Notes: a model not told the origin generated them from the sequence alone. Positions 18,938-22,500 are shown, counted from the stretch's first letter. The stretch: 32,000 nucleotides of DNA from Xanthomonas cerealis pv. cerealis (GCF_021903335.1 NZ_CP074364.1), one strand, 5' to 3'. Translations and numbers: made by a program.

Positions 18938-19597
18938 TTAATTTCGCAAATATCTCTCAGGATCAAATTCCACACCCACGACCTCTTCACCGTTTATTTT
19001 CATTTTATCTGTCAGGCACCCATTAAATATAGAGATATCAACCACGCCAAAAATTTGGCTTCCAGCAAAAGATACTCCGTCCAATTTCGCACCATCGAAC
19101 TGACATGTCTCAAAAACACAATGGGAGTAAATTGCCCCAGCCATATTGGCTTCGGAAAAATTGCAACGCACGAACTTCGAGCCCATTGCAATGGACTTGC
19201 CCATTGCGGCACCAGTAAAATCGCAGTCAACGTAATCCGTACCTGGACGCATCCCGGTCAGCTTGGCGCCTACAAAGCTGGTCGCCTCAAAGCGCCGCGT
19301 CACGATAGTGCCGCGCATATCTATTCCGTCAAATACGCAACGCAAAAATTCGGACTGACTCAAGGATGCTCCTTCCTTGAAGACGGCATAAGACATGTCT
19401 ATATCTTCCACCCTCATGTACCTAATGGACTTGTAAACATCGAGCCCGCGGAAATCGGCTTTATGACTATCAGTTAAGCCAAAAGGCGACACAGGCATAG
19501 ATCCGAGATTCATCTTACTAGACACTTCGCGGATGGCTTTATTAGTGAGCATTGTCAAATCCTGCGTCCATCTTGCACGTAGATCTTTTTTTTTCAT
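18938..19597 (-). CDS. Pentapeptide-repeat protein, putative immunity protein of rhs1
   Basis: The ATG at 19597-19595 shares one nucleotide with the rhs1 TGA (19599-19597). The track start at 19603 is an upstream TTG. GC is low. The phased 5-residue repeats are clear: SEANM AGAIY SHCVF ETCQF DGAKL DGVSF AGSQI, with more upstream (VDCDF TGAAM GKSIA MGSKF VRCNF). Confidence 0.8.
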   Translation of the reverse strand: MKKKDLRARWTQDLTMLTNKAIREVSSKMNLGSMPVSPFGLTDSHKADFRGLDVYKSIRYMRVEDIDMSYAVFKEGASLSQSEFLRCVFDGIDMRGTIVTRRFEATSFVGAKLTGMRPGTDYVDCDFTGAAMGKSIAMGSKFVRCNFSEANMAGAIYSHCVFETCQFDGAKLDGVSFAGSQIFGVVDISIFNGCLTDKMKINGEEVVGVEFDPERYLRN

Positions 19598-22500
19598 CAA
19601 CAAGAGCCTCTTGCCGGTTCACCGCCGCTGGCGTTTCTTGCGCCATGGATAGCATTGGTCGCATGGACGCTACCATACTTGCTTATTTTACTTCTTTGGC
19701 CAGAAGTGGTTATATCAATGATACCCACTCGACCGTCTTTCAATCTAGCTTGGTAATCTGGCCTCACCGTGTTACCCCTAGCATTTTTCAGGCCATCCAT
19801 GTGCCCCCTATTGGACTGCACCTGTGCCTCGTGTTGCATATAATGATTCTTGGACAAAACAACATCCGCCATTTGCTGGATCGCATTACCTCTCGCCATC
19901 TGAACAGGAATATTTGCATAACGCTCATTCCCAGCCAGTATCTCCTGGTATATTTTCCCCCACTGCGTGCCCCTAGTTATACCTCGATCCAGGGCTTTTT
20001 CTGCAAAGGACGCCGCGGCATCAACCTCCCTCGCAATACGATCCCACAGTACATCACCAGTGAGCTTTTCTACTGTTAATCCAAGCGGATCCATCCATCC
20101 GATGGTGTTTTTACCAAAGTTATATAAATTGTCACCAGCCAGGAACCCAAGAGGGTCAATCGACAAAAAACAACCCGCCGTAGAATCATAATAGCGATAC
20201 CTATTATAATGTAGACACGTTTCCTGATCATAATACTGGCCTTGGTACCTCAAGAAACTATTTATCTTGGAACTGCTTTCACTAGCCCTACCCCAGCCGC
20301 TATAGTTAGCTGACCACACAACCTCTCCATCACCGCAAGTGACTCGTGTGGGACAGCCGTTCGGATCAACATGGTAGTGGTAAATCGCAGATCGCCAAGT
20401 GGCCGCCCCCTCAACCAAGCCTGTTGGCAGCAGCTCGCGCTCCCTTGAGGCCGTCATCATCTCAACCGATGCATCGGCTGTAGAAGAGCTGGTTGCCGAA
20501 ATCGGGTCGGGCATCCTATTAGAGACAATAGGGTCCCCCATAAGCCTCATATCCAACGCGACCAAGTTCGACGGCTTTTGCTCGCCGTCTGTCGATGCCT
20601 CGTCTGATTTCGCCACGTCAGCTGGCGGATCGACCAAGGCTCCCCCAATCGCAGGCATTTTGATTCCCGCACCCTGCCCCAGCGCCAAGTCTCCGCCCAA
20701 CGTGCCCAGCCCACCACCGCCAGGCTGCTTGCCGGACTTGATGGCTGCCGGCGCCGCCATCATCGCAGGCTTTGCAGCGCCGTCGGCCGGTGCCAGTTTG
20801 GGTGCGGACGACGCCAGCACGCCCAGCGGTGCGGATGGCGTTCGCTGCGGCGGGGACATGTCTGCGGGCGCGGATGGCGTTGGAGGCTGGGTGGAATCCG
20901 AGCCGCGACTGTCCGTCAACGCCACAGGCGGCGCATCGGATCGCGATATCTGCGCGATCGAAGTTGTCGTCGCGGGCTGCGGCGCTTCGTGCAGTGCAGG
21001 GCCCTGCTCCTTCTCGATCAACGCCAGCGGCACGAAGCTGCCCGGGTAATACACGTATTCCCGCGTGCGCTCGTGCAGCTTCGCGAGCTTCTCCTTGCGA
21101 CGTTTGACCCCGATCAAGTCAGCCACATTCCCCACCCACACCGGCGCCGCATCCGGTTCGTCGTGGGCCTGCTTGACCTCGCCCAGCAGCGCGTCCCCGT
21201 CCCAGTAGAACCAGGTGGTGTGGGTCGGGTTGCGCTTGAACACGCGCCGGCCCAGCGGGTCGTAGCCGTAGTGGGTGGTTTGGCCGGCCTTGCGGCTTTC
21301 GGCCAGGCGGTGGTTGGCGTCCCAGAGCAGTTCCAGGTCGTCCGGTTCCGGGCCGTTCGGGCTGCCCTTGCGGACCAGGTCGCCGGCGCGGTCGAACACG
21401 TAGTGCACGCCGTCGTAGCTGCCTTCGCGGGTCCACTGCACCTGCTGCTCGTCGTCGCCGCCGGCCACCTTGCGCATCTGCACCTGATGGATGCGCGTGG
21501 CCAGGCGGTCGCCGGCCGGATCGTTGAAGAAGCGCTCGATGCGGCCCTTCGGGTCGGTGTGCTGCAGCAGCCGGCCCAGCACGTCGTAGCGGTATTCGTC
21601 CACGCCCTGCGCGCTGTCGCGGCGGTGGGTCAGGTTGCCGGCGCGGTCGTAGTCGTAGGTGGTCTCGAACAGCGGCGCGGCATCGCGCAACACGGTCTGC
21701 GCGGTCAGCAGGCTGCGCCCGTCGTACTGGAACTGGCGCTGCACCTGCGCGCTGAGCTGTTCGCGGGTGGTGCGGCCCAGCGCGTCGCGCTCGATGGCGA
21801 TGGGCGCATCGTCGTTGATCGCCACCTCGACCACCTGGTCGCGCAGGTCGTAGCCGAACGCGATCCGGTTGCCGGCGGAGGTCTCGCGCAGCACGCGGTT
21901 GCCCACTTCGTCATAGCCGTAGCCGACGCGGAAGCCGTCCTGCACTTCCTCCAGCACCTGCCCCAGCGCGTCGAACCTGCGCGTGGCGGTGCGATGCCGG
22001 TTGCGCAGTTCCACCAGCTGCCCGCGCGCGTCGTAGGCGAACTGCTCCTGCACCTGCTGGCCCGGCGTGCGTATGTCCGGCAAGGTCTTCCTGACGATGC
22101 GCCCGAGCGGGTCGGTGGCGAAGGCAATGCGCTGGCCCATCGGGTCGATCGTCGCGGTCAGCCGCCCGCAGGCGTCGTACTGGTAGTGCCGCGACTGGCC
22201 CCAGTAGTCGGTCTCCTCGACGATGCGGCCCAGCGGATCGCGGCGCAGCCGGTAGGCCTCGCCGCGCTGGTTGATCACCGCCACCAGCTGTTCTTCGCTG
22301 TCGTAGCGGTATTCCACCGTGTGCCCGTCCGGCTGCACGCGCTTGCCGATCTGGCCGATGCCCACGTAGTGCAGCCGCGTCTGCGCCCCGGCTTCGTCCA
22401 CGTAGCGCACCAGCTGGTCCTCGGCGTCGTAATCGCACTGCACCTGCCCGCCGTCGGCCGAGCGGATGCGCAGCAGCCGGCCCTTGGCGTCGTAGTCGTA

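Follow-up and report, generated by a model that had tools for sequence, protein, structure and literature searches.

The rhs1 gene of Xanthomonas cerealis pv. cerealis ends in a tail that fits no catalogued toxin, and the gene that follows, sharing one nucleotide with it, encodes a pentapeptide-repeat protein (PRP). Is this PRP the immunity protein of the tail, what kind of toxin would the tail be, and does the PRP act as a DNA mimic? We considered these questions in a window of 32,000 nucleotides (NZ_CP074364.1), in which positions are counted from the first letter. The cassette is real and unusual, and the tail and the PRP belong to a conserved polymorphic toxin/immunity family. As to the mechanism, the fold evidence, consistent but individually non-significant, suggests a nuclease of the PD-(D/E)xK type, and the explanation that we consider reasonably probable is that of a PD-(D/E)xK nuclease toxin neutralised by a PRP that would bind it directly.

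A predicted toxin domain and its coupled, probable immunity gene

Cleavage at a DPLGL site frees the C-terminal tail of Rhs proteins. In rhs1 a Pfam scan leaves the last 167 residues without a match, and the tail that follows the DPLGL motif is exactly 159 residues long (19600-20076); toxin residues are numbered here from the first one after this motif. The PRP gene is translationally coupled to rhs1: in the sequence TGT TGATG AAA, the rhs1 stop codon ends with the A at 19597, the PRP start codon begins with that same A, and a Shine-Dalgarno-like hexamer lies inside the end of rhs1 (Table 1). The list of open reading frames gives a form of 221 residues starting from an upstream TTG (18938-19603), and the 88%-identical homologue P0001 begins MKKKD, like the 219-residue form. 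The PRP passes the Pfam model Pentapeptide PF00805 (E = 4e-12, 45.9 bits for a cut-off of 20.2) as well as Pentapeptide_4 and Pentapeptide_3, with 38.2 bits for the cut-off of 38 of PF13599, and its sequence displays no signal peptide. GC content is 0.41-0.55 across positions ~18750-20350, compared with ~0.70 in the Rhs core.

The conserved part of the tail defines an uncatalogued domain. Searched exhaustively with HMMER, 1.84 billion cluster representatives yield 63 representative clusters at E <= 1e-3 (33 at E <= 1e-10), distributed over at least four phyla. The domain is always C-terminal, and it is carried by Rhs repeats, PAAR-Rhs, PT-HINT, a 3371-residue SpvB-Rhs protein or short proteins. 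This variety of delivery carriers identifies it as a polymorphic toxin domain. Homologues with a named source come from Xanthomonas, Burkholderia cepacia, Pasteurella, Massilia, Planctomycetes and Acidobacteriota. Partial Rhs proteins of Xanthomonas cerealis are among those that share at least 90% identity with the rhs1 tail, and three cluster look-ups returned many metagenome proteins and none from Stenotrophomonas, Clavibacter, Gimesia or Mycobacterium chelonae. Current annotation calls these proteins only "RHS repeat-associated core domain-containing protein" and "pentapeptide repeat-containing protein". Other searches were much less productive: a word-indexed homologue search gave nothing with the tail alone and four proteins only with an alignment of 34 toxins, and when the tail was compared with plasmids by tblastn, nothing matched. 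Neither the tail nor the 34 family members match anything in Pfam, NCBIfam (tail), PHROGs, PADLOC or the sequences of the PDB. In particular, none of the 34 members is matched by the Pfam Tox-REase and PDDEXK models, RmuC reaching E = 0.2 in two members only.

Three alignments were used to identify conserved residues: A1 (the 34 toxins), A2 (eight sequences) and A3 (18 toxin-immunity pairs). In A1 the invariant residues are A25, A65, R105, P106, D107, K130 and Y134, while L29, G32, W39, Y43, N89, Q109, D121 and T123 are at least 90% conserved; in the smaller alignments A2 and A3 there is no variation at G63, N64, Q67 and Q68. No histidine is conserved in the 34-member alignment. The toxin domains are basic: the median of their net charges is +6.5, and the rhs1 tail is at +6 with an isoelectric point (pI) of 9.7.

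To assess the pairing of toxin and PRP, the 34 toxin-homologue loci were scanned in all six frames, the profile being derived from the rhs1-linked PRP and three close homologues. At 32 of these loci the toxin is directly followed, on the same strand, by a PRP homologue; at one of the remaining two the contig stops at the toxin and the other is irregular. The association is thus far beyond chance. The identity matrices of toxins and PRPs are moreover strongly correlated (Mantel r = 0.90, a value reached by none of 5000 permutations; 24 non-redundant pairs), the PRP diverging faster than its partner, with 22-28% identity to the rhs1 pair versus 42-51% for the toxin.

Orphan genes are the closest relatives of the PRP (65-88% identity); they are located among SUKH, Imm44 and SMI1_KNR4 genes, and no toxin remnant was found nearby. 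Their hosts are Xanthomonas sp. AmX2, which has the closest homologue (88%), Clavibacter sp. CT19 and related metagenome contigs, the Clavibacter copy being 70% identical to the rhs1-linked PRP and the copies of Clavibacter and related contigs 65-70%. The Clavibacter copy is much more acidic than the rhs1-linked PRP (net charge -9 versus 0). Its presence fits the report, in a July 2026 preprint on the Tse6/Tsi6a pair of Stenotrophomonas rhizophila CFBP13503, that deletion of tse6 abolishes activity against Clavibacter, Curtobacterium and Plantibacter (bioRxiv 10.64898/2026.07.13.738213).

A cognate immunity gene would be expected to show such pairing, co-divergence and orphan copies in immunity islands. 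A preliminary description of this DNA had read the tail and the PRP as a cognate pair, a claim that the 32 paired loci and the co-divergence now support. Its observations of a 159-residue tail, of a nucleotide common to the TGA and the ATG, and of a clear pentapeptide-repeat protein hold, as does its statement that the tail fits no recognised toxin family, at least as regards profile searches of curated libraries. The low GC of the cassette relative to the Rhs core is likewise confirmed, and the horizontal acquisition deduced from it is supported. What is added here is the extent of the family and the range of its carriers, a pairing that is near-universal, the co-divergence, an active-site proposal and evidence against both gyrase and a mimicry of the Qnr type.

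Predicted structures of the toxin and of the PRP

An AlphaFold2 model of the tail, computed with the 34-member alignment, has a per-residue confidence (pLDDT) of 88 and a predicted template-modelling score (pTM) of 0.82. It comprises an N-terminal helical part, a helix at residues 58-75, a short strand around residue 87, strands at 108-111 and 117-124, a helix at 125-134 and a strand at 138-144, and the predicted structure includes an alpha-beta-beta-beta-alpha-beta core. Compared with the PDB by Foldseek, its top 39 fold matches all, or all but one, contain a PD-(D/E)xK domain, 3dnx being of unassigned function. These matches include Cas4 SSO0001, the Cas4-family ACE1, NucS/EndoMS, AdnAB and bunyaviral cap-snatching endonucleases, together with Card1, VRR-NUC, DrdV, Exo5, EcoO109I, SfsA, McrC and SduA. 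In BFVD the named matches belong mostly to the same superfamily (among them RecU, "PD-(D/E)XK nuclease", a Cas4-family exonuclease, VRR-NUC and RmuC).

Four conserved motifs fall on the elements of the predicted core. GxxxQ is on the long helix that would be alpha-1; the signatures of Tox-REase-8 and Tox-REase-7 start with GxxxQ and GxxxE respectively (Zhang et al. 2012). The RPD motif, at the start of the putative beta-2 strand, would supply the "PD" of the fold, and DxT, on the putative beta-3 strand, occupies the (D/E)xK position, threonine replacing the lysine. Finally KxxxY is on the helix that follows, presumably at the place where RecB/Cas4-type nucleases have QxxxY, and its lysine, K130, is a candidate for having taken over the role of the canonical catalytic lysine. 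Because the conserved residues appear to lie on the elements where the PD-(D/E)xK fold needs them, and because the fold matches are uniform, the rhs1 tail is most likely a PD-(D/E)xK-type nuclease. We hold the fold itself to be rather likely, and nuclease chemistry at the proposed site to be plausible and on balance probable. The preliminary description had noted a weak PD-(D/E)xK resemblance (RPD...DITT): conservation and fold matches strengthen this hint, and the absence of any single significant match tempers it.

The AlphaFold2 model of the PRP (pLDDT 92, pTM 0.88) is a right-handed quadrilateral beta-helix (Rfr fold). Two helices (residues 3-8 and 12-26), which include an RW motif specific to the family, would precede about seven 20-residue coils spanning residues ~45-185, and a cap would close the C-terminus. 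Foldseek returns 46 PDB matches at E < 1e-3, every one a PRP. As MfpA, QnrB1, AlbG and EfsQnr rank beside cyanobacterial proteins and designed solenoids, no functional subgroup is favoured. Besides the phenylalanines and cysteines of the core, the residues invariant in the PRP family are R9, W10, D48, R50 and D67, in the N-terminal module. A Prescottella protein with 31% identity (P0006) was considered as a family member and rejected, its housekeeping context pointing to a generic PRP.

Taken together, we propose that rhs1 is a type VI secretion (T6SS) effector, linked to vgrG, whose exchangeable C-terminal tip would encode a rare polymorphic-toxin domain. From what is known of Rhs biology, autoproteolysis at DPLGL would free a basic domain of ~140 residues, which in the cytoplasm of the target cell would be a metal-dependent nuclease, acting on DNA or RNA, with the PD-(D/E)xK (restriction-endonuclease) fold. 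The model and the conservation suggest an unusual active site, composed of GxxxQ on alpha-1, RPD on beta-2, DxT on beta-3 and a lysine provided by the KxxxY helix. The coupled PRP would be a dedicated cytoplasmic immunity protein that most likely binds the toxin 1:1 and blocks its substrate cleft, its rigid beta-helix and N-terminal RW module serving as a binding scaffold, as the HEAT, ankyrin and leucine-rich repeats (LRR) of other immunity proteins do.

How the PRP may neutralise the toxin

To our knowledge, every self-protection PRP that is functionally understood acts on gyrase. The preliminary description predicted either a toxin acting on gyrase or a topoisomerase, or a DNA-acting toxin neutralised by DNA mimicry, and labelled the PRP as of the DNA-mimic type. 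In the first case the tail would poison gyrase or a topoisomerase and the PRP would shield this target, like Qnr, MfpA, AlbG and McbG, without binding the toxin. MfpA and QnrB1 are indeed the best PDB sequence matches of the PRP (1e-6 to 4e-5), but these matches reflect the shared repeat only: against the NCBIfam equivalog models of Qnr and MfpA the PRP scores at most 32 bits for cut-offs of 240-500 (30.8 versus 360 for MfpA, 23.8 versus 240 for Qnr, at most 26 versus 425-500 for the Qnr subfamilies), and in fold matches cyanobacterial and synthetic PRPs are of equal rank. The matches of the toxin model are confined to nucleases; none is of the CcdB, ParE or Fic kind. Furthermore the PRP sequence follows that of the toxin across phyla, the two are joined in the possible fusion P0032 (see below), and the orphan copies cluster with immunity genes of the toxin-binding kind. 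Charge argues in the same direction. We used as controls QnrA1 (sequence 100% identical to annotated qnrA1) and QnrS1 and QnrB1 (from annotated plasmids), whose net charges are -9, -8 and -6 respectively (pI 4.9-5.3), whereas the median in the immunity family is +1, with values between -5 and +4, and the rhs1-linked PRP is at 0 (pI 6.7). The PRP thus probably does not protect gyrase, and we regard this explanation as very improbable; given the failed Qnr and MfpA models, the neutral charge and a toxin model unlike gyrase poisons, neither the gyrase prediction nor the "DNA-mimic type" label is supported.

A mimic directed at the toxin itself is a different proposal, conceived after MfpA and Qnr acting on gyrase and RehhI acting on Tox-REHH: the beta-helix would fill the DNA groove of the nuclease by reproducing the shape and charge of a duplex. 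MfpA and Qnr proteins have about the diameter of B-DNA, the PRP model is a regular beta-helix, and the toxins are basic, their charges being weakly and negatively correlated with those of their immunity proteins (Pearson -0.47, p = 0.02; 24 pairs, not corrected for phylogeny), which suggests some electrostatic complementarity. In the rhs1-linked PRP the beta-helix part carries a net charge of -3 and the N-terminal 44 residues +4. Acidic immunity surfaces that mimic phosphates have a precedent in RehhI, and GH-E Rhs nucleases are another case in which PRP genes have been seen alongside. Nevertheless the helix has only about seven coils, and the immunity family is about neutral, to be compared with -6 to -9 for the Qnr controls; as the PRP does not share their anionic character, a global mimicry of the Qnr style is unsupported by this test, which measures net charge, not surface potential. 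A local acidic patch may still serve as the mimicking surface. The best-conserved non-structural residues (R9, W10, D48, R50, D67) are in the N-terminal module and not on the faces of the helix, and an immunity protein that diverges faster than its toxin is a better fit to a specific protein-protein interface than to a generic mimic. We therefore see a true DNA mimic as unlikely, if worth keeping in mind. Of the second prediction of the preliminary description, the half that concerns an enzyme acting on nucleic acid is supported and the half that concerns mimicry is weakened by the neutral charge.

The toxin may also be something other than a DNase: on a restriction-endonuclease-like scaffold the tail could be a tRNase or an rRNase, or it could belong to another class such as the ADP-ribosyltransferases. 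CdiA-CT tRNases of the PD-(D/E)xK fold are known, the change from lysine to threonine affects the canonical position, and the fold matches include RNA endonucleases, i.e. the cap-snatching domains of bunyaviruses. For the ADP-ribosyltransferase version, the Tse6 preprint gives such a prediction for the M. chelonae homologue DYE20_11250, but neither fold library (PDB, BFVD) returns a match of this kind for the rhs1 tail, and the authors themselves found no ADP-ribosyltransferase motif (10.64898/2026.07.13.738213). A toxin other than a DNase appears to us rather improbable. The least credible proposal, which we reject, giving it almost no weight, is that the PRP has no part in immunity and serves as a T6SS accessory factor or adaptor of the TagAB/TagB (DUF2169-pentapeptide) kind. 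Pentapeptide proteins are known among such factors; however the PRP has no DUF2169 domain and is matched by pentapeptide models only, its gene is downstream of the toxin and coupled to it rather than upstream near vgrG or PAAR, the same pairing is found on PT-HINT and short secreted carriers devoid of T6SS context, and the orphan copies reside in immunity islands, one of them in the Gram-positive Clavibacter.

Several points weigh against a PD-(D/E)xK nuclease bound by its PRP. No Foldseek match of the toxin model is found at E < 1e-3: the lowest E-values are 0.03 for the PDB and 2.8e-3 for BFVD, TM-scores range over 0.2-0.36, and no sequence profile ties the domain to any nuclease family. With a threonine where (D/E)xK has its canonical lysine, catalysis by the proposed site is conjecture. 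The only grounds for direct binding are genetics and the Tse6 preprint, and the co-divergence would also be expected from mere linkage. The fusion P0032, a single 1819-residue open reading frame that combines toxin and PRP with PAAR-Rhs (L009 665-6124, a metagenome contig), is covered only 4x; it is therefore weak evidence, an assembly or sequencing error being possible. Lastly, the authors of the preprint first saw a structural similarity to a predicted ADP-ribosyltransferase, and their label "nuclease" is given without evidence (10.64898/2026.07.13.738213).

The cassette nevertheless defines an uncatalogued polymorphic-toxin domain with an explicit active-site proposal (GxxxQ, RPD, DxT, KxxxY), and it makes the pentapeptide-repeat fold the obligate immunity partner of this domain. 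As far as we know, few pentapeptide-repeat functions are understood, and most of these concern the protection of gyrase. Another role, if genetically clean, would thus provide a tractable two-gene model cassette in which rescue from toxicity is easily read out, and toxin and immunity models could be curated into Pfam or NCBIfam. Were the beta-helix, as we doubt, a nucleic-acid shape mimic plugging the substrate groove of a divergent PD-(D/E)xK nuclease, it would be the first demonstrated case of an Rfr-fold protein that inhibits a nuclease or protein toxin instead of acting on a topoisomerase; with the PRP genes adjacent to GH-E toxins, duplex mimicry by PRPs would then be a recurrent immunity strategy. 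On the same reading, if it is true, the 70%-identical orphan of Clavibacter would imply that this Gram-negative T6SS toxin exerts selection on Gram-positive plant bacteria.

The rhs1 locus and related systems

The features of the locus are collected in Table 1.

Table 1. Coordinates of the features in the window and of one orphan PRP gene
Feature	Position	Strand	Remarks
vgrG (T6SS spike)	26256..28499	-	Pfam Phage_GPD 2e-85, Gp5_trimer_C 2.5e-23, Phage_base_V 4e-14
573-residue protein, between vgrG and rhs1	24465..26186	-	family unassigned, no Pfam match
rhs1, Rhs effector, 1621 residues	19597..24462	-	RHS_repeat, DUF6531, RHS core
rhs1-unique segment (exchangeable tip)	18889..21018	.	self-BLAST; flanks repeated elsewhere in the array
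Low-GC block	18750..20350	.	last Rhs repeats and core, toxin, immunity gene, ~190 nucleotides downstream
DPLGL motif, expected Rhs autoproteolysis site	20077..20091	-	residues 1458-1462 of rhs1
Conserved toxin domain, tail residues 1-143	19648..20076	-	uncatalogued family; predicted PD-(D/E)xK-like fold
GxxxQ motif, G63-N-A-I-Q67	19876..19890	-	long helix (alpha-1 of proposed core); G63, N64, A65, Q67, Q68 (near-)invariant
"PD" motif, R105-P106-D107	19756..19764	-	start of strand 108-111 (beta-2); invariant in 34 sequences
(D/E)xK position, D121-I-T123	19708..19716	-	strand 117-124 (beta-3), Thr replaces Lys; at least 90% conserved
KxxxY motif, K130-I-S-K-Y134	19675..19689	-	helix 125-134; K130 and Y134 invariant
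Non-conserved tail residues 144-159	19600-19647	-	alignment of 34 members
Shine-Dalgarno-like hexamer AAGAGG	19607..19612	-	inside rhs1 end, 9 nucleotides before immunity ATG
Immunity gene, 219-residue PRP	18938..19597	-	predicted N-terminal helices, ~7 beta-helix coils, C-terminal cap
rhs2	13671-18434	-	followed by Imm22/DUF4284 gene and DUF4303 gene
rhs2 tail, 158 residues after DPLGW	13674-14147	-	R-x5-HE-x48-H-x18-H
Imm22/DUF4284 gene	13299-13667		follows rhs2
DUF4303 gene	12734-13282		separate gene, after Imm22
Orphan Rhs fragment, 538 residues	10985-12601	-	RHS repeats and core, own low-GC tail; with Imm26 gene
Imm26 gene	10421-10888		with the Rhs fragment
Third Rhs gene	7181-10270	-	same cluster
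Orphan PRP gene, Clavibacter sp. CT19	L001 8001-8618		SUKH/Imm44/SMI1_KNR4 island; L003-L006 similar

On the minus strand the order is vgrG, the gene of the 573-residue protein, rhs1 with the PRP gene, rhs2, the Rhs fragment and the third Rhs gene. The position of vgrG on the strand of rhs1 links the latter to the T6SS. Judged from its position only, the 573-residue protein may be an adaptor or a chaperone; in Xanthomonas sp. AmX2 (L002) a 542-residue protein, also negative in Pfam, precedes the Rhs protein in the same arrangement. Within rhs1, Pfam recognises 17 RHS-repeat stretches (7e-75), DUF6531 and the RHS core (3.8e-11, residues 1360-1395); the first ~130 residues (24073-24462) have no Pfam match, PAAR included, which is likewise the case for the N-terminal region of the Rhs proteins. 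A low-complexity insertion of ~200 residues, rich in Ala, Pro, Ser and Gly, is located just before the final repeats and core of rhs1 (~20400-21018, residues ~1150-1350), and a similar insertion of different sequence is present in rhs2 at ~14400-15000. A scan for promoters and terminators around the cassette gave two promoter-like sites for 2.0 expected, and terminator-like sites that are weak.

Three Rhs cores follow one another in tandem with different tips (7047-10290, 14991-18726 and 21019-24756) and are 97.5-98.8% identical. By self-BLAST the rhs1 core (21019-24756) shares 98.8% identity with rhs2 and 97.5% with rhs3, the identity between rhs1 and rhs2 extending ~290 nucleotides upstream of the start codons. 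Such an array, in which only the tips differ, is the classic picture of Rhs tip exchange. The junction at 18677-18888 recurs at 10308-10520 (93%), and 11785-12310 resembles 20553-21072 (88%); these repeated sequences look like recombination scars of tip exchange. The Imm26 gene with its Rhs fragment and the separate DUF4303 gene make up a small poly-immunity region, which resembles the one described for the vgrG6 cluster of Stenotrophomonas.

Among known systems, the toxin is to be compared with the small C-terminal PD-(D/E)xK domains borne by Rhs, HINT or CdiA carriers and followed, as here, by a dedicated downstream immunity gene. PoNe, TseT, IdrD-CT, TseV and the CdiA-CT of EC869 and Bp1026b are polymorphic toxins of this fold. 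The 2012 catalogue lists Tox-REase-1 to Tox-REase-10 and, as repeat immunity proteins, HEAT and ankyrin proteins but no pentapeptide protein (Zhang et al. 2012). The rhs1 family resembles Tox-REase domains in the succession of a helix with GxxxQ/E, an aspartate and a putative (D/E)xK position, and the predicted fold and its neighbours agree; it differs in having threonine for the beta-3 lysine, followed by the invariant KxxxY, in lacking a Pfam match in its 34 members, and in its pentapeptide immunity protein, which none of the listed Tox-REase families has.

With Qnr, MfpA, AlbG and McbG the PRP has in common the right-handed quadrilateral beta-helix (predicted for the PRP), a size of ~200 residues and a probable role in self-protection. 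It departs from Qnr and MfpA by its failure to satisfy the equivalog models, its neutral charge, its additional N-terminal helical RW module and the nature of its partner, a protein toxin rather than a small-molecule or peptide poison of gyrase. The repeat scaffolds found as immunity proteins elsewhere (HEAT with Tox-REase-7, ankyrin with Tox-AHH, LRR) are like the PRP in that a solenoid serves, or in the PRP would serve, as cognate inhibitor of a nuclease toxin, the class of solenoid being different: all-beta Rfr here, alpha-helical or LRR there. Uncharacterised YjbI-like PRP genes adjoin GH-E Rhs nucleases that have no other immunity gene (Jablonska et al. 2017). The fold of these toxins (His-Me finger group 14) is unrelated to that of the rhs1 tail, and some of the PRP genes beside them may be accessory factors of the TagAB type; in T6SS clusters, the pentapeptide proteins already known belong to the accessory factors of TagAB/TagB or DUF2169 type.

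The neighbouring rhs2 leads to another comparison. In its tail the spacing of the motif is exactly that of R46, H52, E53, H102 and H121 of Tox-REHH and, because the next gene encodes a protein of the Imm22 (RehhI) family, rhs2 is very likely a Tox-REHH effector. Rehh/RehhI (Tox-REHH with Imm22) was described in a September 2026 preprint as an Mn-dependent DNase whose immunity protein occludes the active site, a structural precedent for immunity that mimics a phosphate backbone (bioRxiv 10.64898/2026.09.22.753552). Like the rhs1 tail, Rehh is an Rhs-borne toxin of obscured ancestry; unlike it, Rehh has a His-rich HNH-like site (R, HE, H, H), and no PRP is among its immunity families. A Tox-REHH identity was considered for the rhs1 tail and rejected, its family having no conserved histidine.

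The closest parallel is Tse6/Tsi6a. According to the preprint, Tse6 is a rare Rhs C-terminal domain of unknown function, "assign[ed] as a nuclease" without evidence; Tsi6a structurally resembles the pentapeptide-repeat antitoxin of an M. chelonae toxin, AlphaFold3 predicts that the two bind, and Tse6 has orthologues in Actinomycetes, Planctomycetes and Proteobacteria, the carriers being of the PAAR, Rhs, HINT, TPS and lipoprotein kinds (10.64898/2026.07.13.738213). This overtakes the remark of the preliminary description that it knew of no PRP characterised as the cognate immunity protein of a T6SS/Rhs toxin, and it reduces the novelty of the rhs1 cassette, since probably the same pairing is reported there with competition data. 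As to whether the family was already described, the profile libraries are silent and the preprint probably deals with the same pair. The preprint makes no assignment of fold or active site. Both loci have an Rhs effector in a vgrG cluster (Tse6 being a PAAR-Rhs protein), a rare C-terminal domain and a PRP-like immunity protein, as well as homologues in Planctomycetes, Rhs and HINT carriers, and Imm26 and DUF4303 poly-immunity neighbours. For the rhs1 family the link with Actinomycetes is limited to the orphan immunity copy of Clavibacter (70% identity). There is a single PRP gene at rhs1 versus tsi6a plus tsi6b at the Tse6 locus, and rhs1, unlike tse6, stands in a tandem array of three Rhs genes. 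Given the match in cluster type, carriers, taxa and Imm26/DUF4303 neighbours, we think it quite likely that the rhs1 toxin and its PRP, matched by description and not by sequence, belong to the Tse6/Tsi6a family and are its Xanthomonas counterpart.

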